From a bacterium (GTDB lineage Bacteria > Patescibacteriota > Minisyncoccia > UBA6257 > 02-FULL-45-10c): a DNA stretch of 35,104 nucleotides. The stretch is taken from positions 1 through 35,104 of the forward strand of contig JAJYMK010000003.1 in the NCBI GenBank assembly GCA_021786945.1, read 5' to 3'. A program made the position numbers and the translations under genes. The notes below the pieces were generated by a model that searched no databases, was not told the DNA's origin, and worked only from the letters and a program-made list of their open reading frames with translations. Below are positions 1 through 13,476 of the stretch, piece after piece; position 1 is the first letter of the stretch; every line of letters starts with the position of its first letter.

Positions 1-387
1 AAAAAATGGGGTATTTTATTTATTGAAGTGCCTAATTTTTTTTCGGTAGATACATTATTTGATTTTGAAATTAAAAAAAGAGTTTTTAGTGTACCTTATC
101 ACCTATCTTTATTTTCTCCCAGAGGTTTAAAGCAGTTGATTAATTCAGTGGGATTTAAAATCATTGAACAACGATTTTATTTTTCTTCAGTTATTGGTTG
201 CAAGATAAAAAAAATTTTGAATGTATTAAAACCTTATTTTGAATTAAGAACCAAAGAAATGGATATTAAAAAAAACAGTCAAATTTTAAACAGGTCTTTT
301 CCGCGATCTTTTTATAAAAAAATTATTTCTTATATATTGCCCGGGAGTAATATGATGATTGTTTGTAAAAAAGATAAAATTAATTAG
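1..387 (+). CDS. Class I SAM-dependent methyltransferase, C-terminal part (5' end outside window)
   Basis: Frame 1 is open from base 1 (KKWGILFIEVPNF...PYHLSLFS...L...GF). This is the typical C-terminal half of glycan-locus methyltransferases. Stop TAG at 385-387. Confidence 0.7.
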   Translation, partial: KKWGILFIEVPNFFSVDTLFDFEIKKRVFSVPYHLSLFSPRGLKQLINSVGFKIIEQRFYFSSVIGCKIKKILNVLKPYFELRTKEMDIKKNSQILNRSFPRSFYKKIISYILPGSNMMIVCKKDKIN

Positions 388-1056
388 TTGGAATATTTAA
401 ACAATATAAACATGAAAAATTTTAATTTAGTAGAAATGTATAAAAAACATCACGAAATTAATCATAGATCGGGTTTTTCTTTGCTTGAAAAAGAACGGGG
501 TAGTTTATTAGTCAAATTAGTTGGTCAGAATAAAAACATTTTAGATATTGGTTGCAGAGATGGCGTGCTTACAAAGTACTTCGCAAAAAATAATAACGTC
601 TTAGGTGTAGATGTTGATGACAATGCATTGAGATTGGCAAATAAAACTTTAGGAATTCAAACAATTCAAATGGATTTGAACGGAGACTGGACGGAATTAA
701 ATTATAAAAAATTTGATATCATAGTAGCAGGAGAAATTTTAGAGCATCTTTATTATCCGGATAAAGTATTGGAAAAAATTAAGAATCATTTGGTTTTGGG
801 GGGTATGTTTATTGGTTCCGTTCCGAATGCTTTTAGTTTAAAAAATAGGCTGAGATATTTATTCGGCCAAAAGAAAAATACACCACTAGAAGATCCGACG
901 CATATAAATCAGTTTTCCTATAAAAATATTAAAAATTTAATGGATGAATATTTTAGGGACATGAAGATTGTTGGGTTGGGAAGAGCTGGGTTTTTGGCTA
1001 AAATCTTTCCAAATTTATTTGCGTTTGATTTGTTTTTTATTTGCAGATATGAATAA
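388..1056 (+). CDS. Class I SAM-dependent methyltransferase
   Basis: ILDIGCRDG motif I, GVDVD, FDIIVAGEILEHL, GSVPN...HINQF. The start may be the ATG at 412 rather than the TTG at 388. Confidence 0.85.
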   Translation: MEYLNNINMKNFNLVEMYKKHHEINHRSGFSLLEKERGSLLVKLVGQNKNILDIGCRDGVLTKYFAKNNNVLGVDVDDNALRLANKTLGIQTIQMDLNGDWTELNYKKFDIIVAGEILEHLYYPDKVLEKIKNHLVLGGMFIGSVPNAFSLKNRLRYLFGQKKNTPLEDPTHINQFSYKNIKNLMDEYFRDMKIVGLGRAGFLAKIFPNLFAFDLFFICRYE

Positions 1057-2134
1057 TTCTAATAAAAAAGTTTGTTTTTTAATTAATAGTTTAGGATTTG
1101 GTGGGGCAGAAAGGGTCTTTGTCGACGATGCGAATAGTTTTTTTGAACAAGGAATTGAAATTTTTTTTATTATTTTGTATGGAGAGTCAGAAGCTAACCC
1201 TTTAGTTAAACAATTAAAAATTCCCCTACAAAACATCATTTTTTTAAAAGCTAGAAATAGATACGATGTTAATATTTTTAAAAAATTATTTTTCTTTTTG
1301 AAAGAAAAAAATAGATTGTGTCTGTATTCAACTCTGAATGATGCTAATTTTGTTTCTCGATGTATCTCTATTTTTTTTCCAAAAATATTTTTAGTTATAA
1401 GAGAAGCTAATACAGCAGAAAATAGAAGTTATTTGCATAAATTTTTTGATATATTAATGAATTTTAGAGCAAATACCTTAGTGGCTGTTTCAAAAAGTGT
1501 TAAAGACTCTTTTTTATCTTATCAGCCTTGGAATAAATCAAAAACTATCGTTGTTTATAATGGCGTTGATATCCCAGACATTTTCAACAAAGAAAATAAC
1601 GAGACGGTGGTTTTGACTGTTGGTAGCCTTACTTTTAAAAAAAACCATAGTTTATTAATTGATATTTTTGAAAAAATAGCAAATGAATTTCCGGAAGTTA
1701 AATTACATATCGTGGGAGACGGTATTTTGAAAGATGAGTTGTCTGATATTATTTTGTTTAAAAAATTACAAAATAGGATTTTTTTATTGGGAAAAAAGAA
1801 AAAAGAGGAAGTTTTTGAAGAATACAAAAAAGCTAGTATTTTTGTATTGTCTTCAAGTTGGGAGGGCTGTCCAAATGTTTTATTAGAAGCGATGTCGTTT
1901 GGGTTGCCAAGTATTGCTATGGGAGTTGGGGCAGTTCCGGAAATAATCGAAAATAAAGTATCTGGATTTATCGTGCCTAGAAATAATCCGTTTCTGATGG
2001 CAGAATATATAAAAGAATTATTAAGATCTAAGAATCTGCAAGAAGAAATGAAAAAAAAATCTCAAGCAAGGATAATTGATAAGTTTTCTAGAGACAAACA
2101 CCTTTCCGAATTAAAAAAATATTTATTAAATTAA
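1049..2134 (+). CDS. Glycosyltransferase family 4 (GT-B)
   Basis: GGAERV N-terminal motif, VYNGVD, and SSWEGCPNVLLEAMSFG (EX7E). Start reassigned to the ATG at 1049, which overlaps the upstream gene end. Confidence 0.9.
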   Translation: MNNSNKKVCFLINSLGFGGAERVFVDDANSFFEQGIEIFFIILYGESEANPLVKQLKIPLQNIIFLKARNRYDVNIFKKLFFFLKEKNRLCLYSTLNDANFVSRCISIFFPKIFLVIREANTAENRSYLHKFFDILMNFRANTLVAVSKSVKDSFLSYQPWNKSKTIVVYNGVDIPDIFNKENNETVVLTVGSLTFKKNHSLLIDIFEKIANEFPEVKLHIVGDGILKDELSDIILFKKLQNRIFLLGKKKKEEVFEEYKKASIFVLSSSWEGCPNVLLEAMSFGLPSIAMGVGAVPEIIENKVSGFIVPRNNPFLMAEYIKELLRSKNLQEEMKKKSQARIIDKFSRDKHLSELKKYLLN

Positions 2135-2135
2135 T

Positions 2136-2951
2136 ATGAAAAAAATAATCAATGAAGATGTTAGATTTGCTTTTGGAAGGAATTGGAGTGCTTATTTAAA
2201 AAATAATCTAATTTCCGAAGCAATTGAAATAAGTAAAGGGGGTTTAGAGGAATTTTTAGGTAAAAATCCTTTGCAAAATAAAACTTTTTTAGACTTTGGT
2301 TGTGGCAGTGGCATTCATTCTTTGGCAGCTCTGCAACTTGGCGCAAAAAAAGTGGTAAGCATTGATTTTGACGGAGATTCTGTTAAATGCTGTAAAAAAA
2401 TAAAAGAGGAAAGAGGCGATGGATATGATTGGGATATTTTACAGGGCTCTCTTATTGACGATAATTTTGTTAAAAGCCTCGGGCATTTTGATGTTGTTTA
2501 TTGTTGGGGAGTAGCTCATCATACCGGAGATATGAATAAGGCATTATATAATTTAAAGGAGCTAACTTCTGAAAACGGAGAATTGTTTGTAGCGATTTAT
2601 AATAAGGTTGAGGGAATGCGGGGTTCAAAATATTGGTGGAATATAAAAAGATTTTATAATAAATCTAGTTTTTTTATCAAAAAAATAATGGAATTATTTT
2701 ATATCTTTATTAATTTTTTGAAATTAGTTTTACGTTTTAAAAATCCATTTAGAGTCATGAATGAATATAAAAAGAAGAGAGGGATGAATTGGAGAACCGA
2801 TTTGATCGATTGGCTTGGTGGGTTTCCTTATGAATACGCCTCACCACAGGAAATTTTTAAAATTTATCACGACAAATATGGTATGGAATTAAAAAATATA
2901 AAAACAACAAATTATATTGGATGTAATCAATTTTTATTTGTTAAAAAATAA
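2136..2951 (+). CDS. Class I SAM-dependent methyltransferase
   Basis: FLDFGCGSGIHS motif I, FDVVYCWGVAHHTG, DWLGGFPYEYA. Confidence 0.85.
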   Translation: MKKIINEDVRFAFGRNWSAYLKNNLISEAIEISKGGLEEFLGKNPLQNKTFLDFGCGSGIHSLAALQLGAKKVVSIDFDGDSVKCCKKIKEERGDGYDWDILQGSLIDDNFVKSLGHFDVVYCWGVAHHTGDMNKALYNLKELTSENGELFVAIYNKVEGMRGSKYWWNIKRFYNKSSFFIKKIMELFYIFINFLKLVLRFKNPFRVMNEYKKKRGMNWRTDLIDWLGGFPYEYASPQEIFKIYHDKYGMELKNIKTTNYIGCNQFLFVKK

Positions 2952-2954
2952 ATT

Positions 2955-4778
2955 ATGTGTGGAATAGTTGGTTTTTCGTATAAAAACGAAGTTGATTTAA
3001 AAAAATCACTTCAAAAAATAGCTCATCGTGGTCCGGATAATTCCGGTTGTTATTTTGATGAGAATGTAAGTTTCGGTCACAATAGATTGTCTATCATAGA
3101 TTTATCTGATTTTGCAAATCAGCCGATGATAAGCAAGGATGGAGGTTCGGTTATTATTTTTAATGGAGAAATATATAATTTTAAAGATCTTAAAATGGAT
3201 TTGGAAAGATCCGGTGTAAAATTTAAGACCAATAGTGATACCGAGGTTATATTAAGGGGATATGAAAAGGAGGGGATCGGTTTTTTTTCTAAGATGAGGG
3301 GGATGTGGGCGTTTGCTATTTATGATAAAAAAGATAAAAAAATAATATTAAGCAGAGATTTGTTTGGCATCAAACCTCTTTATTATTCTATTGATTCAAA
3401 TAATCATTTTTTCTTTTCGTCTGAGATAAAAGGGATTAAAAATTTATTAAAATTGTCACCAAATAAAGAATTTTATTATCAGTATTTTAATTTTGGCTTT
3501 TTTGTTGCCCCGAATACTTGTTATAAAGAGGTCAAAAAAGTTGAACCAGGAGAGGTTTTGGTTTGGGATTTGATTGGTAAAAAGTTAAAATCACAAAAAA
3601 TTGATTTAATAGGAAATTATAGTAAAAATTTAGTTAATAATTTCGAAGATACTATTGATGTTTTAAATCAATCAATATTGGATTCGGTAAGGTCTCATTT
3701 TGTATCTGATGTTCCCGTTGGTATTTTATTTTCGGGCGGAAATGATTCTTCTTTGATCGCCGCTACCGCTAGCAAAATTGGCAAAAAGCCAACACTTTAT
3801 CATTTGGATATAAAAGGAAGTACTGATAGTTATTATGCTGATAAAATCGCAAATCATTTAGGGTTGGAATTAAAAAGTTATGAAATGAATAACCAGGTAC
3901 TGTCTGATCAGTATGATAAAATTTGGTCTATTTTAGACGAGCCAACTTCCGATATTTCGGTTATTCCGACTTCTCTTATTTATTCAACAATAAATAAAGA
4001 CACAAAGGTTGTTTTGAGTGGGGAGGGGGGTGATGAATATTTTGGCGGCTATTTACGACATAAAAATTTGATAGGATTGGATGGAATTAAAAAAGATAAT
4101 GGAATTTTAGAATTATTTAATTTTTTGGGTTCCGGACAATCTTTTTTTTCTTTGGAAGTATTAAATCCAATTATTAATAGATTGAGAAATGTTTCGTTGA
4201 ATAATTTTCAAAATGACTTAATTGGGTCTTATATGAAAGAAATAAAAAATATTGATTATCCTATTTTTTATAATGATACCAGGAGTTTTTTGTTCGAATT
4301 TTTTAATAAAAAAACTGACAAATTTGTTCCTAATAATTTATTTTTTGATCTTTTTTTGTATTTGCCAAGTAATTTAATGTATAAAAACGACATTTCTTCT
4401 ATGGCTAGCTCAATAGAGGCGAGAACTCCTTTTCTGGATAAGAATTTTTATAATAATGTTTTTTCTAAAATAAGGCCTGAATTTTTGCTTTCAAAAAAAT
4501 ATAATAATAAGATACTTATAAAAAAGGTTTTAGAAAGATATTTGCCAAAAGAATTGGTTTATCGAGATAAAAAAGGTTTCGGTTTTTCTTTTGATATTTA
4601 CGGAAATAAAAAAATTATTAATGATTCAATAGAGGCACTTAATTTTCATCAAAAAAATGCAGATATTTTTGGGTTGAATGAGGGGTTTATCGACTCAAAG
4701 AATGCTGAATTATTTTTAAAAAAATTTCCAAGATTTGTTTTTTCTCTTATTTCAAATTGGAAAATAACTCAAAAATAA
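2955..4778 (+). CDS. asnB: Asparagine synthase (glutamine-hydrolysing) family amidotransferase, probably glycan-modifying
   Basis: N-terminal MCGI (Ntn Cys), HRGPD, RLSIIDL, NGEIYNF, SDTEV, SGGNDSS, LSGEGGDEYFGGY, EARTPFLD, K.GF. Confidence 0.92.
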   Translation: MCGIVGFSYKNEVDLKKSLQKIAHRGPDNSGCYFDENVSFGHNRLSIIDLSDFANQPMISKDGGSVIIFNGEIYNFKDLKMDLERSGVKFKTNSDTEVILRGYEKEGIGFFSKMRGMWAFAIYDKKDKKIILSRDLFGIKPLYYSIDSNNHFFFSSEIKGIKNLLKLSPNKEFYYQYFNFGFFVAPNTCYKEVKKVEPGEVLVWDLIGKKLKSQKIDLIGNYSKNLVNNFEDTIDVLNQSILDSVRSHFVSDVPVGILFSGGNDSSLIAATASKIGKKPTLYHLDIKGSTDSYYADKIANHLGLELKSYEMNNQVLSDQYDKIWSILDEPTSDISVIPTSLIYSTINKDTKVVLSGEGGDEYFGGYLRHKNLIGLDGIKKDNGILELFNFLGSGQSFFSLEVLNPIINRLRNVSLNNFQNDLIGSYMKEIKNIDYPIFYNDTRSFLFEFFNKKTDKFVPNNLFFDLFLYLPSNLMYKNDISSMASSIEARTPFLDKNFYNNVFSKIRPEFLLSKKYNNKILIKKVLERYLPKELVYRDKKGFGFSFDIYGNKKIINDSIEALNFHQKNADIFGLNEGFIDSKNAELFLKKFPRFVFSLISNWKITQK

Positions 4779-4780
4779 TT

Positions 4781-5131
4781 TTTAAAGCTGATTAGAGAAG
4801 CTATTTACATAATATACGAGCAAAACAAATTTCTTTAATTTTAGATGTATTAAAAAATAAAAAAGAATTAAGAAATAATTTAAAATTAAATAAAAACTAT
4901 GGTACTCTTAGAAAGATATTATGGCCAATACCGCATGGTAATTATTCTTCAAATTTTGAAGAATTTATAAGATATGGAAAAGAGAAGTGAGTTGAGTTAT
5001 TTATTAGCTTCGGTTTTAAAATAGAAAAAATCATAAAGAGTCTGGTTGCTTCGAGATACGGTTTTGGTTTTGAGCGGCTGAGATATGTTTTAAAAGGTAT
5101 GTGATTTTCTTCGGTTTATATATTTATTTAA
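4781..5131 (+). pseudogene. Decayed, apparently internally deleted methyltransferase-like gene
   Basis: One frame reads FKAD*RSYLHNIRAKQISLILDVLK...LWPIPHGNYSSNFEEFIRYGKEK*VELFISFGFKIEKI...SRYGFGFERLRYVLKGM*FSSVYIFI*. Stops are at 4793 (TAG), 4988 (TGA), 5102 (TGA) and 5129 (TAA), each one base from a W, W, G or L codon. No SAM-binding motif I remains. Confidence 0.55.
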
Positions 5132-5144
5132 AAAAGATTTGATT

Positions 5145-5894
5145 ATGAATAATATAAATTTTAAAAAACATAATATAGAGTGGACCAATGAAAAGATTAG
5201 TCGTTTTTGGGATTACTGTGCTTCTAATAAGGATCTCTTTGAAGATTCGGTTGCTAAACAGAACGGAGAAGGGATTGTAAAATTTGTAAAAAAATACATA
5301 AAAAAAGATGGTCGAAATTTAGATTATGGTTCGGGTCCGGGGTATTTATTAGACTACTTATTTCAAAACAATATTTCTTGTTTTGCGCTAGATTCTTCCC
5401 CTGATTCCTTAGAAAATATAAAAGAAAAATTTAAAAATAACCCACTTTTAAAGGATGTTATTTTATCAACTAGTATTCCAAACAAAGATATCAAAACAGA
5501 AAATTTTGATTTCGTGTTTTTTATTGAGACTATAGAACATGTTTCTCCGGAATTCCTTAAAAATACACTCGAAGAAATGAATAGGATAGTAAAGCCAGGC
5601 GGCTATATTTTAATTACTACCCCAAATAAAGAAAATTTAGAGAAAAAAAAAGTAATTTGTCCGGAGTGTGGTTGTATTTTTCATAGGGTGCAACACATGA
5701 ACTCTTTTTCTGTAGAGAAATTATCAAATCTTATGTCTAGCCATGGTTTCGAACGAGTTTTTTGTAAAGAAACTATTTTTACTACCGGGGGAATATTTAA
5801 TAAGGTTAAATATATAATAAATAATTTTATGGAGCAGATTAATTTTAAAAAAAAGTTTAAACCAAATCTAATTTATTTAGGAAGAAAAAAATAA
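5145..5894 (+). CDS. Class I SAM-dependent methyltransferase with CPECGC motif
   Basis: NLDYGSGPG, FDFVFFIETIEHV, KPGGYILITTPN, CPECGC..FHR.QH. ATG at 5145; the ORF track starts at the TTG at 5139. Confidence 0.85.
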   Translation: MNNINFKKHNIEWTNEKISRFWDYCASNKDLFEDSVAKQNGEGIVKFVKKYIKKDGRNLDYGSGPGYLLDYLFQNNISCFALDSSPDSLENIKEKFKNNPLLKDVILSTSIPNKDIKTENFDFVFFIETIEHVSPEFLKNTLEEMNRIVKPGGYILITTPNKENLEKKKVICPECGCIFHRVQHMNSFSVEKLSNLMSSHGFERVFCKETIFTTGGIFNKVKYIINNFMEQINFKKKFKPNLIYLGRKK

Positions 5895-5985
5895 AAGATG
5901 GATATTTTGAATTAAAAAAATATTATGGAAAGCAAAAAATTTTAAAAAATGGTTACTTTTTTAAAAAGGTAAAGTTAATTATAAA

Positions 5986-6188
5986 TGTCTTTGCAATATT
6001 TATAATCTTGCTGAGGATGTTGAAAAAAATATATACACGGAGCTTTTGTGGAGTGTGATATTTGGAGGGGTGGGGCCGCAGCGGTAATGGCTTTTATTAC
6101 AAATAAATATAAATCAGGAATGATGATTTGGCTTTTCGATTATTTTGAGGGGTTACCGAGATCTAATAATATAGATGGAAAGTGTTAA
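5986..6188 (+). pseudogene. TylF/MycF/NovP-family sugar O-methyltransferase fragment
   Basis: 6033-6188 translates IHGAFVECDIWRGGAAAVMA...IWLFDYFEGLP, matching the TylF signatures G.FVECGVWRGG and W.FDSFEGLP. The upstream segment (CLCNIYNLAEDVEKN) is in another frame, with a frameshift near 6031. Premature TAA at 6186. Confidence 0.75.
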
Positions 6189-6540
6189 TTGTACCCTTAG
6201 AAAATATAATACCCATTATTCTGAAATTTTTATTCATAAAAAAAATAATAAGGCCAGAGAAAATTGGGCTGATTTTATTAAAATATAACTTTCTTTTTTG
6301 TCTTACTTACCAAAAGCATGGTCATTGGAAGCACATTGAATGATCCAATGGCTACCATTATCGTATAGATCTACGAATAGATGATTGATAATATATATTG
6401 AGGAAAGAATGTTTTGAATATTAGTAGTGTAGTAATTATATAAAAAAATAGACAGTAAATACAGTTAATGTAAATTTTGTTGATTTGAGAAAAAATATTA
6501 TTTTTGTTCTATCTATATTTCTATTTTAGGTAAATAGTGC

Positions 6541-7809
6541 TTACCTAGATTTTTTAAACATTAGATAATAAGAAATAATTATATTGAAAATGTTACTTAT
6601 ACCCCTAGCCACAATTAAACCAATAATTCCAAATAAATTAATCATTAAAATCATTACAACAATAGAAATTGATGGACTTAGAATACTGAATATGTAGTTT
6701 TTTTCTTTTTCCATTGTTGCTGAAACATTTGTCATAGGAAGTATGTAGAGAGAAATCAGAGAAAGCATTAACATGTAAATTTGTGAGTATAATATTGAAG
6801 AATTATATTGTGGAAAAAAAAGATTATATATTGGTTTTGCTAATACAATATAAATTATTGTAATTGTTAATGATGCGATAAAAAAAATAAATGATTTTTT
6901 AATAAGGTGTACTTTGTCGTCTCCTTGACTATGAGAAGATAATTTAGGTAATGCTATAACTTGAACACTTTTTATTAAACCATAAACTCTGTCTGGAATA
7001 TTTGTAGCAAATGCATAAATAGCCAATTTGGTTGCGCCCAAATAATGAAAAACTAAAATATTGTCCAGTTGTAAAATGGCCGTGCTTATAAAGTTTGCTA
7101 AACTTAGATGTTTGCCATAAGAAATTGTTTCCGGATCTTCTAGGTTGTTTGGTTGATATTTTTTTATAACGATAGAATATGCGATTAAATTAGCTATAAA
7201 ATTTGAAATTAAATTTACAAAAATTAAAATAACAGGATTTTTTGTAATAGTTAGACTAACTATTAAAATTGGGTAGTAGGTGAAATTTAGTATTTGATAT
7301 GTATAAAAATACGATTCAAAATTCTTTTTTCCGTTTAAAAAAGCTAAAAAAGTATTAAAGGTATTAATGAGTGGTGTGAGGATACCAACTATTAGTATGC
7401 CTAGGGCTATTTGCCAATTATTATTTAAAAAATAATAAGTACTAATTCCGACCGAAACCAGAAAGGGGATCGTTCCGTACTTAAGTTGTATTAAAATTGA
7501 TTTTTTAAATGAGCCTTCTAGCCCTCTGGCAACAGCTTGGGTTATAGCCGTATTCATCCCCGTTAGTGTGAACGCCCCAATTATTGATCCAATAGATAAA
7601 ATAAATTGATAGGTTCCGTAGTTTTCTTTTGGTAGAAACCTTGAAAATGCTATATAAAGCAAAAAAGAAAAGATGGATACTACCACTGTATTTGAATTTA
7701 TCCAAAACGTGCTTTTGGCTAAATAAACCATATCGGTTTTGGTGTATTTTTCGGTCCAGCGCAGAAAATTATGTGTTTTAACCTTTATTCTTTCTATGTG
7801 TTTTCTCAT
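6541..7809 (-). CDS. Wzx-like oligosaccharide flippase (polysaccharide biosynthesis/export protein)
   Basis: 422-aa polytopic membrane protein with RFLPKENYGTYQF and D.ILVFHYLG....AIYAFA motifs, next to glycan genes. Confidence 0.85.
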   Translation of the reverse strand: MRKHIERIKVKTHNFLRWTEKYTKTDMVYLAKSTFWINSNTVVVSIFSFLLYIAFSRFLPKENYGTYQFILSIGSIIGAFTLTGMNTAITQAVARGLEGSFKKSILIQLKYGTIPFLVSVGISTYYFLNNNWQIALGILIVGILTPLINTFNTFLAFLNGKKNFESYFYTYQILNFTYYPILIVSLTITKNPVILIFVNLISNFIANLIAYSIVIKKYQPNNLEDPETISYGKHLSLANFISTAILQLDNILVFHYLGATKLAIYAFATNIPDRVYGLIKSVQVIALPKLSSHSQGDDKVHLIKKSFIFFIASLTITIIYIVLAKPIYNLFFPQYNSSILYSQIYMLMLSLISLYILPMTNVSATMEKEKNYIFSILSPSISIVVMILMINLFGIIGLIVARGISNIFNIIISYYLMFKKSR

Positions 7810-7882
7810 TTCAATTATTAAACTATTTTTGCCGTCTTAAAGTCATTTTGCCCGAGCCTTCTTTTAGTATATTATATAACGT

Positions 7883-10078
7883 ATGCAAACAAATACTTTC
7901 AAGAATATTTTGGTTTGGACCATAAGAATCGGTCTATTAATCGTGCCTTTTATTCCGCTTTACATAGCCGCTGGCTTATTTTTCCCGTTTATCACCGGTA
8001 AAGCTTTTCTTTTTAGGGGGATTGTAGAATTGGTTTTTGCAGCTTGGTTAATATTAATTGCTTTTTATAAGGAATTCAGGCCAAAGAAAAATAATTTGCT
8101 TTGTATAGCTATTTTTATTGCTGTTGTTACTTTAGCTACCGTTGTGGGCATAAATCCCCTCAGAAGTTTTTGGTCTAATTTCGAGAGGATGGAGGGGTTG
8201 GTTATGTATATTCATCTTTTTGCTTATTTCTTGGTTCTTGGGAATGTTTTCAAAAAGAAAGATTGGTTTTGGATGTTCAATGCTTTTATAGCTTCGGGTT
8301 TAATTGAGGGTTGCTACGGTGTTTTGCAGAAAATTGGTAAAATTGCATCTCCTCAGGGTGGAAACAGAATTGATGGAACAATAGGTAATCCGGCATATTT
8401 GGCGGCCTTTATGATGTTTGTCGCCGCTTTTTGTGTTTATTTGTTTTTGAAGACAAAGAATGTTTCTGGCCGAATATATTATGCCGCTTCGGGATTGTTT
8501 TCTTTGTTGATTATTTATTTTACGGCAACCCGTGGTCCGGTTTTGGGTATTTTTATTGCTTTGATTTTAGCGGGAGCGGGGTATTTATTTTTCAAGAAAA
8601 TTGAAACCGAAAACGATAAAAAAATTAAAAAAGCCTTGCTTTGGAGTTTGGTTGGTTTGGTTTTGGTGGCGGGACTGATTTATGGATTCAAAAATGTTGG
8701 ATTTATAAAAAATAATCCGACGCTTTCCAGGCTTACCAATTTATCTTTTAGCGATACAACAATTACTTCCAGGTTTAGTATTTGGCAGATGAGCTGGAAA
8801 GGATTTTTGGAAAAGCCGCTTTTGGGTTGGGGACCAGAAAATTATGTCGTAGTATTTTCAAAATACTATACTCCGGAAATGTGGAAACAGGAGCCTTGGT
8901 TTGATAGATCTCACAACATTGTTTTTGATTGGCTTATCAATGCGGGTATTTTGGGTTTATTGAGCTATTTGTCTATTTTCTTTTTTGCCAGTCGTGAACT
9001 TTACAAAAATTATCAGAACAAAAAAATATCTTTTGAGGAACTGATTTTGGTGCTTGGTCTTTTTGTAGCTTATTTCTTCCAGAATCTTTTTGTTTTCGAC
9101 AATATCGCTACTTATATTTCTTTCTTTGCCATATTGGCTTGGATTTATAGCGTGTCTACCGAAGAGGAGCGGGCGGTTTCGCAAAAAGAAAAGCCGGCTT
9201 TAGATATAAATTATTCGCCATTGGTTATCGCCGGAGTCGTTTTGTTGGGCTTTTTCTATGCCTATCAGATGAATATAAAGCCTTATTTTGCTAATTCTGA
9301 TTTAATGAATGCATTGATGTACGACAAGTATCCTACAACCGCTTTAGGTTATTACGAAAAAGCTTTTAATGAAAATACTTTTTTGGGTAGAGACGAAACA
9401 GTCGGCCAGTTTGTAACTTTTGCCGTTTCGGCTGTAAAAGATTCGACATTGTCTACCGACAAAAAACAGGAAATCGTTTCTTTAGCAGTAAAAGAGCTGG
9501 ATACGGCAAAAAGTCAAAATCCTTTGGATCCGAGGCCGTTTATGTATTCCAGTTTGTTCTACGAGAGTGTTGGCCAAATAGATAAAGCCATTGAAAATAT
9601 GCAGGAGGCCGTAAAAATTTCTCCGCACAAACAAGATATTGTTTTGAATTTAGCTAGGCTTTATTTGGGTCAGAATGATTTTGAAAAAGCTTTGCCGATT
9701 ATAGAAAAAACATTCAATGAAGACCAAACCAATCCGAATGCTAGAATTGATTTAGCCGCAGCTTATATTTTGATGGGCGATCAGGCTAAAGCCGACCAGC
9801 TTCTTATTGAAGGATTTGGAACTACGACTGTTACGGATGATATTTTATTAAAGAGTTATAGTATTGTTAAAAAGTACGACAGAATGTTGGATATTTGGAA
9901 AGAGTTGGTAAAACAAAATCCTAAAAATATAAATTTTTATAAAGGTTTAGCCGGCGCCTATCTTTTGAATGGTAGAGTCGATTTAGCCATCGAGTCTCTT
10001 CGTATGATTGTAACTATTGACCCATCAAGGTCCTCGGAGATTGAGCAGATAATCAATCAGATTCTTGGTAGTAAATAA
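7883..10078 (+). CDS. O-antigen ligase/polymerase (Wzy_C) family membrane protein with C-terminal TPRs
   Basis: Many TM helices; RIDGTIGNPAYLA, TATRG, R..IW......F.EKPLLGWGPENY, DRSHN...D.L...GILG. C-terminal TPR-like helices (A...NP, A...SP). Confidence 0.88.
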   Translation: MQTNTFKNILVWTIRIGLLIVPFIPLYIAAGLFFPFITGKAFLFRGIVELVFAAWLILIAFYKEFRPKKNNLLCIAIFIAVVTLATVVGINPLRSFWSNFERMEGLVMYIHLFAYFLVLGNVFKKKDWFWMFNAFIASGLIEGCYGVLQKIGKIASPQGGNRIDGTIGNPAYLAAFMMFVAAFCVYLFLKTKNVSGRIYYAASGLFSLLIIYFTATRGPVLGIFIALILAGAGYLFFKKIETENDKKIKKALLWSLVGLVLVAGLIYGFKNVGFIKNNPTLSRLTNLSFSDTTITSRFSIWQMSWKGFLEKPLLGWGPENYVVVFSKYYTPEMWKQEPWFDRSHNIVFDWLINAGILGLLSYLSIFFFASRELYKNYQNKKISFEELILVLGLFVAYFFQNLFVFDNIATYISFFAILAWIYSVSTEEERAVSQKEKPALDINYSPLVIAGVVLLGFFYAYQMNIKPYFANSDLMNALMYDKYPTTALGYYEKAFNENTFLGRDETVGQFVTFAVSAVKDSTLSTDKKQEIVSLAVKELDTAKSQNPLDPRPFMYSSLFYESVGQIDKAIENMQEAVKISPHKQDIVLNLARLYLGQNDFEKALPIIEKTFNEDQTNPNARIDLAAAYILMGDQAKADQLLIEGFGTTTVTDDILLKSYSIVKKYDRMLDIWKELVKQNPKNINFYKGLAGAYLLNGRVDLAIESLRMIVTIDPSRSSEIEQIINQILGSK

Positions 10079-10110
10079 CTTTTATTCTTATATTTATTCT
10101 TCACTAAAAA

Positions 10111-10150
10111 TGTTTCCATTATTTCCGCTATAGCAAAATTTATGGAAACA
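10111..10150. repeat. 40-bp palindromic element, copy 1
   Basis: TGTTTCCAT-TATTTCC-GCTATAGC-AAAATTT-ATGGAAACA, flanked by AAAAA and TTTTTTT. Intergenic between the ligase gene and recG. Confidence 0.95.
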
Positions 10151-10202
10151 TTTTTTTGTTTGGTTAAAAATATTTTTTACGCTTTTGAATTAAAGAATAT
10201 TC

Positions 10203-10211
10203 TGGTATAAT
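10203..10211 (+). promoter_or_regulatory. Extended -10 promoter element for recG
   Basis: TGGTATAAT (TGnTATAAT), 17 bp before the recG ATG. Confidence 0.6.
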
Positions 10212-10228
10212 ATATACAATTTAAACAA

Positions 10229-12343
10229 ATGGATCTCAATACCGAGCTGAATAAAATAAGCGGTATCGGACCGAAGTTTATCCCAAAGCTAAATAAGCTG
10301 GGTATTAAAACTGCCAAAGATCTTCTTTGGCATTTTCCTTTTAGATACGACGATTTCTCGAAAATTAGCCCGATTGCCGAATTGGTGCCCAATCAGCCCG
10401 CCACAATTCATGGAGTTATTCAGAAAATAGGTTTACGCAGGACGTTTAGGAAGAAATTGGTTTTGGTTGAGGCAATTATAGTAGATGAAACAGGCGGGGT
10501 GCGCGCAATGTGGTTTAATCAGGCGTATTTGTTAAAAACTTTAAAGCCCGGTACGCAGGCCAACTTTGCCGGAAAGATTATTGAGTCAAAAGGGGACGTA
10601 TATCTTAGCAATCCAGTTTATGAAATCACTTCCAGTCACGGAATTTCTGGATCTATAAGTGGTCCGCGGCATACTGCGGGTTTAATTCCGGTTTATCCTG
10701 AAACCAGGGGTATTACTTCAAAATTTTTGAGGTTTATTTTAAAACCAATTCTTTCTTCTATCCCGCCGATTGAGGATTTTATGCCGAAAGAGGTTTTGGT
10801 AAAAAATAGTTTGCCGGAAATTAATTCTGCTTTGAAGAAAATTCATTTTCCGCTTAGAGCCGTGGATGCCGAACTCGCCAAAAAAAGATTCGCTTTTGAA
10901 GAGCTGTTTTTGTTGCAGCTCAATAATCTTAAAATAAAATCAAAATTAGCTGAGCAAAAAAGCGAAGCCATTCCTGTTGACCAGGATTTTTTGGATAAAT
11001 TAATTACTGATTTGCCGTTTATTTTAACCAACTCCCAAAAAGATGTTCTGCATGAAGTTCTTTCCGATATCCAGAAGTCTCGTCCAATGAACAGACTGCT
11101 TCAAGGCGATGTCGGTTCCGGAAAAACAGTTATTGCGGCTATAGCGGCCATTTTGACGGCGAAGCACGGCAAGCAGACGGCCATTTTGGCTCCGACCGAA
11201 GTGTTGGCCCAGCAGCATTACAGAACAATTACAAAGTTATTTAAAAATTTTGAAGGTGAAATAGAAATATTGACTGGCGCTTCCAAACAAAAGAAAAGTC
11301 TGAACGATAAGATAGAAAGTGGGCAGACAAAAATAATTATCGGTACCCATGCCATTATCCAAAAAGCGGTTAAGTTCAATAATTTGGCTTTGGTAATTGT
11401 TGACGAGCAGCACCGCTTTGGAGTAGAGCAGAGAGCTTCGCTTCTTAAAAAAGACAAGGGCTTGGGTGTTTTAATTCCGCATTTGCTTTCCATGTCCGCC
11501 ACTCCTATTCCGCGAACTTTAGCACTCACTATTTTCGGCGATTTGGATTTATCTATTATTAATGAGCTTCCGGCTGGCAGAAAACCGATTATCACAAAGG
11601 TAGTTTCTCCTACAAAGCGTATGGAAGCATATGGTTTTATAAAAGACCAGATTCTGAAGGGAAGGCAGGCCTTTGTTATTTGCCCGCGTATTGAGCCGGG
11701 AACTAAAGACGAGGAGGAAAGAAAAGTTTTGACCGAATCCCAACAAAAGATATTAGATTTGAAATCGGTTAAGGAGGAATATGAAAGATTGTCCAAAAAG
11801 ATTTTTCCCGACCTCAAAATTGCCATGCTTCACGGAAAACTGAAAAATTCCGAAAAGGAAAATATCATGAGAGATTTTCAGGATAAGAAATACGATATTT
11901 TGGTTTCTACTTCCGTGGTGGAAGTGGGTGTAGACGTGCCCAACGCCACAATCATGATGATCGAGGGGGCGGACAGATTTGGTCTGGCTCAGCTTTATCA
12001 GTTTAGGGGCAGGGTAGGGCGCAGCGAGCATCAGTCTTTCTGTTTGTTGTTTACGGATTCCGAGTCTGAATCTACTCAATACAGATTGGATTCTCTTTTG
12101 ATCGCCAAAAATGGATTTGAATTGGCCGAAAAAGATCTTGAGCTCCGCGGTCCGGGCCAATTTTTGGGCAAAGAGCAGACCGGACTTCCGGATATCGCCA
12201 TGGATGCCTTGAAAAATATTGAATTGGTAAAAGCCGCCAAGGTTTCCGCCGAAGAAATTCTTTCCAACGATCCCGATTTTTCCAAAAATCCTTTGCTTGG
12301 CGAGCGCTTCAAGCAATTCACTCAAAACATCCACCTCGAATAG
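10229..12343 (+). CDS. recG: ATP-dependent DNA helicase RecG
   Basis: N-terminal HhH and wedge domain; MNRLLQGDVGSGKT, APTEVLAQQH, DEQHRFG, MSATPIPRTL, GVDVPNAT, QFRGRVGR, GFELAEKDLELRGPG (TRG motif). Confidence 0.97.
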   Translation: MDLNTELNKISGIGPKFIPKLNKLGIKTAKDLLWHFPFRYDDFSKISPIAELVPNQPATIHGVIQKIGLRRTFRKKLVLVEAIIVDETGGVRAMWFNQAYLLKTLKPGTQANFAGKIIESKGDVYLSNPVYEITSSHGISGSISGPRHTAGLIPVYPETRGITSKFLRFILKPILSSIPPIEDFMPKEVLVKNSLPEINSALKKIHFPLRAVDAELAKKRFAFEELFLLQLNNLKIKSKLAEQKSEAIPVDQDFLDKLITDLPFILTNSQKDVLHEVLSDIQKSRPMNRLLQGDVGSGKTVIAAIAAILTAKHGKQTAILAPTEVLAQQHYRTITKLFKNFEGEIEILTGASKQKKSLNDKIESGQTKIIIGTHAIIQKAVKFNNLALVIVDEQHRFGVEQRASLLKKDKGLGVLIPHLLSMSATPIPRTLALTIFGDLDLSIINELPAGRKPIITKVVSPTKRMEAYGFIKDQILKGRQAFVICPRIEPGTKDEEERKVLTESQQKILDLKSVKEEYERLSKKIFPDLKIAMLHGKLKNSEKENIMRDFQDKKYDILVSTSVVEVGVDVPNATIMMIEGADRFGLAQLYQFRGRVGRSEHQSFCLLFTDSESESTQYRLDSLLIAKNGFELAEKDLELRGPGQFLGKEQTGLPDIAMDALKNIELVKAAKVSAEEILSNDPDFSKNPLLGERFKQFTQNIHLE

Positions 12344-12391
12344 TTTTTAGCTCTACTTTGCCGCCGCTAGCTTTATAAAAATATACAAAAA

Positions 12392-12431
12392 TGTTTCCAT
12401 AAATTTTGCTATAGCGGGATTTATGGAAACA
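12392..12431. repeat. 40-bp palindromic element, copy 2
   Basis: TGTTTCCAT-AAATTTT-GCTATAGC-GGGATTT-ATGGAAACA, between the convergent stops of recG and the PaaX/Cas2-like gene. 37/40 identical to the reverse complement of copy 1. Confidence 0.95.
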
Positions 12432-12456
12432 TTTTGATGTCCGAATTAATACCTTT

Positions 12457-13029
12457 TTATTTTAAATTAAAAAACTCTTTTATTTTATTGTTATTGGGCA
12501 GCTTATCCGCTTTGAAATAAAGTACGCATTTTTCAAGGGGTAGGCCAAAAACCGAACATAGAAAGTCCAATTCGTTTATACATTCGTAGGGGTACACCCA
12601 AATGCTTTTTTGCAATTGATACATTCCCAATTGTTTTATTTTTCCTCTGAATGCATCGCTGACCTTTTTGAATTTCTGTGGAATATCGTAAATAACAATT
12701 CTCCATTGCCCGTCCCATTTAGCCGGTTTTGGAATTTTCATATCGTCTAATTTATATTGATGCACTATATTTTTTCCGGCTTGCGTAAGCTCTATTTTGA
12801 TAGTGCCGTCTTCAAGTTCTTTGAAATTGACCAATTTCTTTTTGTTGAATTCAGCCAGTTTTTTTGATCTTCTCCTTATATCCGCTTCAGTTTTATCTTT
12901 AAAATAATTTTTTACTAATTTGTGTAAAAAATAAGGGGAGCTTGTGGCGGCTAAAGTTATAATTCCCACCCCGGCAATTTTTAAGAGCGTATCTTTTGTA
13001 AAATTTATTTTTTTATTTTTGTTTATCAT
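12457..13029 (-). CDS. Stand-alone wHTH + Cas2-like domain protein (PaaX-family, short CPR type), 190 aa
   Basis: Winged-helix-like segment (RRRSKKLAEFNKKKLV...IKIELTQAGK) followed by WDGQWRIVIYDIP...FRGKIKQLGMYQLQKSIWVYPY, the PaaX central/Cas2 ferredoxin-fold signature. Start moved to the ATG at 13029, because the ATG at 13068 lies inside palindrome copy 3 and upstream of the -10 element. Confidence 0.85.
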   Translation of the reverse strand: MINKNKKINFTKDTLLKIAGVGIITLAATSSPYFLHKLVKNYFKDKTEADIRRRSKKLAEFNKKKLVNFKELEDGTIKIELTQAGKNIVHQYKLDDMKIPKPAKWDGQWRIVIYDIPQKFKKVSDAFRGKIKQLGMYQLQKSIWVYPYECINELDFLCSVFGLPLEKCVLYFKADKLPNNNKIKEFFNLK

Positions 13030-13042
13030 ATTTTTCGTGAAA

Positions 13043-13051
13043 ATTATATCA
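13043..13051 (-). promoter_or_regulatory. Extended -10 promoter of the PaaX/Cas2-like gene
   Basis: The minus strand reads TGATATAAT, 13 bp upstream of the ATG at 13029. Its -35 region falls inside palindrome copy 3. Confidence 0.65.
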
Positions 13052-13059
13052 CATAAAAA

Positions 13060-13099
13060 TGTTTCCATAAATCTCGCTATAGCGAAAAATATGGAAACA
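13060..13099. repeat. 40-bp palindromic element, copy 3
   Basis: TGTTTCCAT-AAATCTC-GCTATAGC-GAAAAAT-ATGGAAACA, 30 bp upstream of the PaaX/Cas2-like start. Its reverse complement is 36/40 identical to copy 2. Confidence 0.95.
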
Positions 13100-13101
13100 A
13101 T

Positions 13102-13129
13102 TTGACTTTGTAATTTTTTGGATTAAAAT
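13102..13129 (+). promoter_or_regulatory. Putative sigma70 promoter, divergent from the PaaX/Cas2-like gene
   Basis: TTGACT-N16-TAAAAT, starting 2 bp after palindrome copy 3. Confidence 0.45.
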
Positions 13130-13237
13130 TAAGATGTTTTTAGTTTGTTTGTAATATTTTTTGTAAAGTTTTAAATATTTTAGTGAAAAATACTTCAATT
13201 TTTAAAATTTATAGATTTTCTAAAAGAAATTAGAAAT

Positions 13238-13272
13238 CGGGACGCTTGGTAGAGCGCCCCGTTTTTATTTTT
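13238..13272 (+). terminator. Putative intrinsic terminator
   Basis: CGGGACGCT-TGGTAG-AGCGCCCCG stem (one mismatch) followed by TTTTTATTTTT. Confidence 0.65.
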
Positions 13273-13277
13273 GGAAA

Positions 13278-13476
13278 AATTCGGCAATTCGGCAAAGCCG
13301 AAGTTAAAGAATTCGGCAACCGGAGGTTTATAAAAAATATTTTGCAAACAAAATAAAACAGGGCAAAGTTCGGCAAAACATAATTAGTCCTTAAATTGCC
13401 GAATTGTTTGTAGGGTATTTATTAATATTAAAAATATTTTGAAAAATGGATAATCAAAATTCTAGCAATTCGGCAA
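13278..13476. repeat. Cluster of TTCGGCAA octamers
   Basis: Forward copies at 13280, 13288, 13312, 13369 and 13469; reverse copy at 13396-13403; partial reverse copy GCCGAA at 13297. Confidence 0.8.

Follow-up and report, generated by a model that had tools for sequence, protein, structure and literature searches.

PaaX is the phenylacetyl-CoA-responsive repressor of paa operons. In the REP/RAYT pairs (repetitive extragenic palindromes, REP, and the REP-associated tyrosine transposases, RAYT), a single-copy gene is located between its own species-specific palindromes, and extra intergenic copies of these palindromes are found past stop codons and can serve as terminators. For E. coli PaaX, a review describes the site TGATTC(N27)GAATCA, with a span of 39 bp, and attributes the repression of the paaX promoter by its own product to steric hindrance (PMC9493321). 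Here, a small PaaX-like gene, termed mini-PaaX (protein P0001), and a 40-bp palindromic element that brackets it were analyzed in a stretch of 35,104 nucleotides, in the following called the window, which corresponds to C3:1-35104 (contig JAJYMK010000003.1) of the genome of an ultra-small patescibacterium in three contigs (700,109 bp, 99.4% complete). It is supported by the sequence comparisons that mini-PaaX and the palindromes form a cognate pair, and relatives repeat the layout with private palindromes, so that these rapidly evolving pairs of protein and DNA site appear to make up a family not described so far.

The element has the form TGTTTCCAT-N7-GCTATAGC-N7-ATGGAAACA. Three exact copies are present in the window with 0 mismatches to the pattern, where 0 are expected, and 100 dinucleotide-preserving shuffles of the window contained 0 matches; a scan allowing up to 3 mismatches revealed no fourth copy in the 35 kb. 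The copies and the gene are arranged as follows:

10111 to 10150, no strand: palindrome copy 1, exact match, a solo site
12392 to 12431, no strand: palindrome copy 2, exact match, in the 113-bp convergent gap between recG and mini-PaaX, on the downstream flank of the gene
12457 to 13029, minus strand: mini-PaaX gene encoding P0001 (190 aa), assigned by Pfam PaaX_M, an AlphaFold2 model and Foldseek
13060 to 13099, no strand: palindrome copy 3, exact match, in the divergent gap, on the upstream flank of the gene

The mini-PaaX stop (12457) is separated by 25 bp from copy 2 and the ATG (13029) by 30 bp from copy 3, while copy 1 is located beyond recG, 79 bp 5' of this gene and 32 nt past the stop of a Wzy_C/TPR gene. 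An earlier sequence-only reading of this DNA had described the three copies with invariant arms and core and fixed spacing, their distances to the gene and the lack of further copies in the 35 kb, all of which was reproduced.

A scan of the whole genome returned six copies only, all of them intergenic, so that the motif is not spread genome-wide. The remaining copies 4, 5 and 6 are located at C3:110545, C3:141062 and C3:142962, two of these with one arm mismatch; copy 4 lies between an open reading frame (ORF) of the ComEC metallo-beta-lactamase type and ndk, and copies 5 and 6 lie on either side of a ferric-reductase/cytochrome b5 operon. AAAAA is found 5' of all six genomic copies and the invariant block is thus longer than the sequence-only reading had stated. 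Over the six copies, 1 of the 26 columns of arms and core is variable compared with 11 of the 14 linker columns (Fisher p = 1.7e-6), and the linkers, which retain the pattern WWWTYYY / RRRAWWW, are Watson-Crick paired at only 3-4 of 7 positions. As the linkers vary and arms and core do not, the variation fits a protein footprint more than a hairpin. Contigs assembled from four DNA runs break at the repeated arms of the element.

Copies 5 and 6 are contained in a direct repeat of 132-134 bp (C3:141057-141188 and C3:142957-143090) that brackets the ferric-reductase-like and cytochrome b5-like genes. This repeat holds a second, imperfect palindrome of 32 bp centred on GATTAATC, which is found nowhere else in the genome and is similar to the palindrome type of G002, a genome of the same genus. 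Possible explanations are a remnant of an older palindrome type or a cassette that is excisable between its repeats.

The sequence-only reading had proposed that protein and palindromes are cognate, and the homologues support this as they carry their own, different palindromes on their flanks. Homologues of P0001 are present in 35 of 60 relatives, and the element motif of this genome occurs in 0 of these 60, five of which belong to the same genus. Homologues from the 60 relatives were combined with 80 loci of species-representative genomes to give 108 loci with 101 distinct proteins; the species-representative search was built on the 8 closest sequences, 163 of 169 candidate stretches were confirmed and the best 80 of these were used. 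Palindromes were scored as matches minus twice the mismatches and counted at a score of at least 11 within 200 bp of the gene. An upstream palindrome is present in 49 of 101 homologues and a downstream palindrome in 50 of 96, with palindromes on both flanks in 33 of 96, compared with a background on the distal flanks of the same loci of 11 palindromes in 189,670 bp (0.012 per 215-bp interval), an enrichment at this gene family of ~40-fold. The flanking palindromes are 24-56 bp long, are perfect in 24 of 49 cases upstream and 30 of 54 downstream, and leave a median gap of 27 bp on the ATG side and of 17 bp on the stop side; their commonest centres are GCCATGGC (26), ACGATCGT (16) and GCTATAGC (15). 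The two flanks of a locus match each other: upstream and downstream half-sites of one locus show a median identity of 0.88 (at least 0.75 in 28 of 35 loci), whereas half-sites of different loci show a median of 0.38 and a 95th percentile of 0.67. Several assemblies encode 3-6 paralogues, each with its own distinct palindrome. The data thus show directly that palindromes flank this gene family far above background, that the two flanks of a locus match and that arms and core are conserved in this genome.

The protein P0001 is encoded by a single-copy gene, and its start at 13029 is consistent with the N-termini of the homologues. Pfam PaaX_M (PF20803), the Cas2-like middle domain, matches residues 103-177 with 60.5 bits against a cut-off of 24 (1.7e-16), while the Pfam models of the PaaX N-domain and of PaaX_C gave no match in P0001 and the chain stops 13 residues past PaaX_M. 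The AlphaFold2 model, based on an alignment of 28 homologues, has a mean predicted local distance difference test (pLDDT) of 90.5 and consists of a winged helix at approximately residues 10-95 (three helices and a two-strand wing, with the hydrophobic N-terminal segment modelled as helix 1) followed by a ferredoxin-like beta-alpha-beta-beta-alpha-beta domain. The best Foldseek match is PaaX from E. coli W (8A39; E 3.4e-5, 187 columns), followed in order by Rv0674 (3KFW), the winged helices of RosR/MarR (~85-90 columns), VapD and Cas2. Domain hit, model and top match demonstrate the fold and agree with the PaaX-type protein, a winged helix-turn-helix joined to a Cas2 fold, that had been read from the letters. 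P0001 reaches neither the cut-off of the PaaX equivalog TIGR02277 (15.6 bits vs 264.55) nor that of the Cas2 model TIGR01573 (17.7 bits vs 24.5). Using phmmer, the family comprises 2,891 cluster representatives at 50% identity with E <= 1e-3 and 1,606 with E <= 1e-10, nearly all of ~180-200 aa.

The family consensus is WDGKWR-V-FDIP...LQKSVF. Three positions (G85, P117 and Q140) do not vary in the 28-sequence alignment, and three more (D115, I116 and S142) are conserved to at least 90%. D115 aligns to the 'YDV' of the Cas2-like protein 3EXC, i.e., to the beta1 Asp of Cas2, which we take to be the catalytic residue of Cas2; the PaaX-like Rv0674 has VTSI where the P0001 family has the DIP motif and is without an aligned Asp. 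The sequence-only reading had noted that cas1, a CRISPR array and a transposase are missing, and this was extended: Cas1 and a Y1 transposase (PF01797) were not found in the genome, no tandem array was found in the window and no paa genes were seen among the scanned neighbours. P0001 would be a homodimeric sequence-specific DNA-binding protein; a homodimer prediction scored 0.27 against a mark of 0.42, which counts neither for nor against a dimer.

Mismatches inside the palindromes are strand-symmetric, with G.T versus A.C mismatches of 13/13 upstream and 15/11 downstream, and this balance disfavours a strand-specific RNA hairpin. Together with the footprint-like conservation and a geometry matching the PaaX site, the symmetry favours recognition as duplex DNA. 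Covariation between protein and site was analyzed by mutual information between all protein columns and DNA positions 1-14 from the dyad in 68 of the 101 proteins (those with even-length palindromes). The top pair is residue 118, just past DIP, with base 2 from the dyad (0.88 bits). Glu at position 118 goes with the centres TC (11) or TA (6), Asp with TA (4/4), His with TG (5/5) and Asn with A-first centres (8/10), and Gln is mixed. Phylogenetically independent pairs, drawn from a tree built without column 118, are concordant versus discordant at 4.8 vs 0.0 of 5 for E/D, 4.1 vs 0.2 of 5 for N and 2.8 vs 0.0 of 4 for H.

Within the genus, recG shows 74-86% identity to its orthologues over the best segment and 92% over the C-terminal part; the mini-PaaX proteins of different species share only 57-63% identity and their palindromes are unrelated in sequence. 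Copies of the own palindrome type number 6 in this genome (G000), 3 in G002 (near-matching) and 2 plus one degenerate solo copy in G004. Both G004 copies lie at the mini-PaaX gene, and the degenerate solo copy lies in the ComEC-ndk gap, where it abuts a right flank homologous to the flank beside copy 4 of G000; this gap is without such a site in G002, G003 and G005. The third copy of G002 is located 33 nt from a conserved recG promoter block (TTTTGAAT...TGnTATAAT) and copy 1 of G000 32 nt from it. In this comparison, two orthologous sites, upstream of recG and in the ComEC-ndk gap, are read as bearing each genome's own type. Upstream of recG in G004 an element of its own type was not found, only a short palindrome of 18 bp. 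In G002 the cassette has the opposite orientation with respect to recG, and the two are separated by a uracil-DNA glycosylase gene; in G001 (76% complete) recG itself is inverted, with no palindrome of this kind and no mini-PaaX gene found nearby. The ferric-reductase loci of G001 and G005 contain no palindrome scoring at least 10.

Two further features were seen in the same-genus genomes. The ComEC-ndk gaps of G004 (L129) and G002 (L131) contain a GC-rich insert of ~170 bp with inverted ends TGTCATTCC ... GGAATGACA, not present in G000, G003 and G005, which looks like a small element of the MITE type (miniature inverted-repeat transposable element). In G003 (L047, G003:C35) recG is read as a single 837-aa frame that has ~120 additional residues between positions 491 and 494 of the query, perhaps from an insertion in frame (intein-like or a repeat).

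The reading that we favour, and regard as moderately probable, is that mini-PaaX is a PaaX-like dimeric autorepressor with operators on both sides of its gene and at a few other promoters, operators that would also act as terminators; that the protein binds, dimerises and represses, and that a regulon exists, is what we infer here. A P0001 homodimer would bind the 40-bp palindromes as duplex DNA, with the two winged helices reading the distal 9-bp arms, the centres of which are 31 bp (~three helical turns) apart, and the Cas2-like dimer on the dyad reading the GCTATAGC core, whereas the 7-bp linkers would not be read base by base. Autorepression would follow from binding at copy 3, where the protein would block the promoter of mini-PaaX and probably the divergent one as well. 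On its other side the gene would be closed by copy 2, which would act where recG and mini-PaaX converge, as a roadblock or as a terminator for both directions, and the four other sites (5' of recG, 5' of ndk and on both sides of the ferric-reductase/cytochrome b5 operon) would be the operators of a small regulon. Protein and sites would shift their specificity together and quickly, resulting in a private palindrome per species and per paralogue. The genes and promoters on which this proposal draws are:

10203 to 10211, plus strand: extended -10 TGGTATAAT of the putative recG promoter, read from sequence, with TTGAAT at 10185-10190
10229 to 12343, plus strand: recG helicase gene between copies 1 and 2 (Pfam RecG_wedge, DEAD, Helicase_C, RecG_dom3_C)
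13043 to 13051, minus strand: extended -10 TGATATAAT of the putative mini-PaaX promoter, read from sequence, 13 nt before the ATG
13102 to 13129, plus strand: promoter-like site TTGACT-16-TAAAAT, score 10/12, starting 2 nt past copy 3

The recG promoter is absent from the list of the consensus scan as its spacer is 15 nt, and its block is conserved 5' of recG in G002 and G004. For mini-PaaX, the consensus scan gave another, weaker match than TGATATAAT; with TGATATAAT located between copy 3 and the ATG, the putative -35 position falls inside copy 3. The promoter-like site at 13102-13129 faces orf13446 and a gene for a 1466-aa LTD/PKD surface protein. Copies 5 and 6 likewise have a promoter-like site 2 nt past the arm, and the arm of copy 4 overlaps one. 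A -10-like hexamer between palindrome centre and start, often touching the arm, is found in 37 of 49 loci, a count made without a control set.

If transcribed, the three window copies would fold as RNA at energies between -15.1 and -26.1 kcal/mol (z between -5.7 and -10.5) and carry U tails, copy 2 folding at -26.1 kcal/mol on the plus strand and -19.2 on the minus strand, and Rfam at gathering thresholds gave no match in the window. As the terminator scan showed no other terminator-like hairpin in the recG/mini-PaaX gap, copy 2 is likely a bidirectional terminator. Termination alone does not account for the element: the remaining terminator-like palindromes in this genome share its AAAA-stem-TTTT style, but they are short and rich in G+C and their sequences bear no relation to it, and copy 3 lies in a divergent gap.

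Several observations weigh against an autorepressor with a small regulon. No palindrome at threshold is found in about half of the homologues; as the elements of this genome score only 12-15, degenerate sites in relatives were probably missed. Copy 1 is centred ~90 bp 5' of the recG start site, the convergent gaps that hold copies 2 and 6 contain no promoter that could be controlled, and a downstream site is superfluous for a simple autorepressor, yet it is present in half of the homologues. Consensus promoter matches are as frequent in shuffled sequence, with no excess, and the promoter assignments therefore rest on sequence reading and on conservation in two relatives. In the covariation, sign tests of independent pairs reach only p 0.06-0.25 with 3-5 pairs, though all in the same direction, and the classes were picked after inspection of the data. 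The Cas2-aligned Asp, at least 90% conserved and absent from the PaaX-like Rv0674, hints at catalysis. Furthermore, 124 half-positions differ between the flanks of relatives, and 79 of these show complementary changes on both arms, 36 a change on one arm only and 9 non-complementary changes on both arms (58/33/7 without two loci having flanks of different types), although selection by palindrome score inflates the count of mirrored changes and this genome is an exception with no mirrored change between its copies. As a dimeric repressor does not need mirrored changes, they suggest a cruciform or hairpin stage with intrastrand pairing, or a symmetrising copy mechanism.

Such a mechanism is at the core of the strongest competitor, a REP/RAYT-like pair built on a different enzyme, which we consider unlikely but worth serious attention. 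Here the Cas2-like dimer would nick or cut the palindrome centre or resolve a cruciform, and thereby copy, homogenise, invert or replace palindromes; the gene with its two flanking copies would be the master element, the solo sites its deposits, and regulation secondary. Unlikely to a slightly greater degree is the specific proposal that the dimer is a site-specific nickase or cruciform cutter acting on the dyad, which symmetrises, copies, inverts and replaces palindromes in place; it draws on the retained Cas2 Asp, D115, adjoining the residue that tracks the central bases. The wider scheme accommodates the conserved, Cas2-aligned D115 beside the covarying residue, a gene between its own palindromes with solo intergenic copies, the mirrored flank differences, orthologous positions holding each genome's own type, the inversion of the cassette relative to recG in G002 and of the recG segment in G001, the 132-bp direct repeat around copies 5 and 6 with its possible relic palindrome of another type, and the location of five of six copies 17-32 nt past a stop codon, a REP-like position. 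It fits poorly with the tiny copy numbers in the three same-genus genomes and with a genome in which a Y1/HUH transposase was not found, and the uncompensated drift of the linkers in this genome is unfavourable for a hairpin-dependent enzyme. We know of no PaaX_M protein with nuclease activity. The chromosomal neighbourhood is also conserved, with recG beside the gene within the genus, a homologue of orf13446 adjoining it in 13 of 101 loci and the 1466-aa LTD/PKD protein as neighbour in 11 of 101, which argues against recent mobility of the cassette. Thus, where the sequence-only reading had left the choice between a repressor with its operators and a REP/RAYT-like element, the evidence favours the repressor for the role of the protein, while the second option retains the minor share of probability given above.

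The palindromes could also be ordinary bidirectional intrinsic terminators or mRNA-stabilising hairpins with an incidental link to the gene. The stable RNA folds, the A-runs before and T-runs after the elements in the style of the other terminator-like palindromes of the genome, and the proximity to preceding stop codons speak for this, but the terminator scan did not flag the 40-bp elements, nothing ends in the divergent gap that holds copy 3, the sense strand is without an excess of G.T over A.C, and this would explain neither the ~40-fold enrichment nor why the two flanks match, why each paralogue has a type of its own or why arms and core are invariant beside variable, poorly paired linkers, so that we consider it very improbable. 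A shade more improbable still is a system at the RNA level, in which a Cas2-like ribonuclease processes hairpin RNAs from the palindromes as VapD or Cas2 RNases do: the VapD and Cas2 structural matches, the conserved Asp and the predicted hairpins would suit it, whereas the strand-symmetric mismatches disfavour it, the winged helix and the whole-chain PaaX-like match indicate duplex DNA, and the upstream copy, which does not extend past the predicted start of transcription or coincides with it, would often not be transcribed with the gene. The least probable proposal is that the protein binds chromosome-organising sites of the parS centromere or replication-terminus type. The genes of Tus and RTP adjoin one of their own sites, the element arms presumably begin like the parS consensus half-site, and a single replichore holds the six sites in a stretch of 133 kb; however, they are located mid-replichore, 70-200 kb from the switch of the skew sign (~C3:190-220 kb), symmetric sites are incapable of polar fork arrest, and in relatives the copy number can be as low as two, with neither copy away from the gene. 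A separate perfect palindrome is found at C3:534609-534638 near the minimum of the cumulative GC skew, and the 16-bp palindrome within it is what we take to be a parS consensus match. A parS identity of the 40-bp elements was rejected on account of this separate palindrome, and a replication-terminus identity was rejected as the GC-skew profile places the six sites away from the skew switch. With the parS-like palindrome near the skew minimum, the replication origin probably lies near one end of contig C3, the end that is close to this minimum.

In the surroundings of the gene family, recG is found inside the 1.5-kb flanks in 6 of 101 loci, same-genus cases included, and it may thus be a recurrent target. 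In the distant relatives L120, L114 and L107, recG is divergent from a mini-PaaX paralogue, and a palindrome was detected in the shared gap of L120 and L114. At L045 (G001:C146), two palindromes with the core CTGCTACCCTATAGGGTAGCAG (4329-4368 and 4476-4503) are located 5' of a small helix-turn-helix-like ORF (111-127 aa) and may form with it a protein/palindrome pair of a different family. In the window itself, the 416-bp divergent gap (13100-13445 part) holds, besides the plus-strand site at 13102-13129, a GC-rich hairpin with a T tail at 13238-13270, and both could delimit a small RNA or leader of ~135 nt before orf13446. Positions 1-8000 of the window show a G+C content of 0.26-0.29 compared with 0.33-0.39 elsewhere in the window and contain polysaccharide-synthesis genes, including a flippase-like gene at 6541-7809; low G+C together with glycan genes is common for horizontally exchanged surface-glycan clusters.

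The family occurs in bacteria with genomes of ~700 kb and few regulators. A search of the full-text literature, with subscription journals and supplements outside its scope, returned no description of PaaX_M or Cas2-like proteins with flanking palindromes in bacteria of candidate phyla. If the autorepressor reading is true, thousands of natural, mutually orthogonal pairs of a protein and a 40-bp site would exist, the Cas2 fold would take part in base-specific DNA reading, and the genus would lend itself to studying how a repressor shifts its specificity in step with all of its operators. If the nickase reading is true, the family would be a non-HUH analogue of REP/RAYT and a living link of Cas2 to sequence-specific DNA recognition. 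The family also has a bearing on the relationship of Cas2, VapD and PaaX.

Among the known systems, PaaX is similar in the order of an N-terminal winged helix and a Cas2-like middle domain, 8A39 being the best whole-chain match of P0001. According to the review, the PaaX site spans 39 bp, compared with 40 bp for the element with its 9-bp arms 22 bp apart (PMC9493321). In contrast to PaaX with ~305 residues, P0001 has 190 residues and is without the C-terminal effector domain, and it keeps the Cas2-type DIP motif, which the PaaX-like Rv0674 does not. Its sites differ as well: they flank the gene on either side and are long palindromes, close to perfect, in which an 8-bp centre is conserved, and the specificity of mini-PaaX varies between species of one genus. 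With REP/RAYT, mini-PaaX shares the single-copy gene, the flanking palindromes and the dispersed intergenic copies, whereas the fold of P0001 is unrelated and without an HUH/Y1 domain, the copies number 2-6 instead of tens to hundreds, and the palindromes are longer and usually perfect. With Cas2 and VapD, P0001 shares the ferredoxin-like core, and its beta1 'DI' Asp and 'Q-S' strand motifs align to Cas2; it differs in scoring below the Cas2 cut-off, in the fusion to a winged helix, and in the genomic setting without cas1 in the genome or a tandem array in the window. In P0001, the Cas2-like domain appears to have the role of dimerisation and of reading the DNA dyad.

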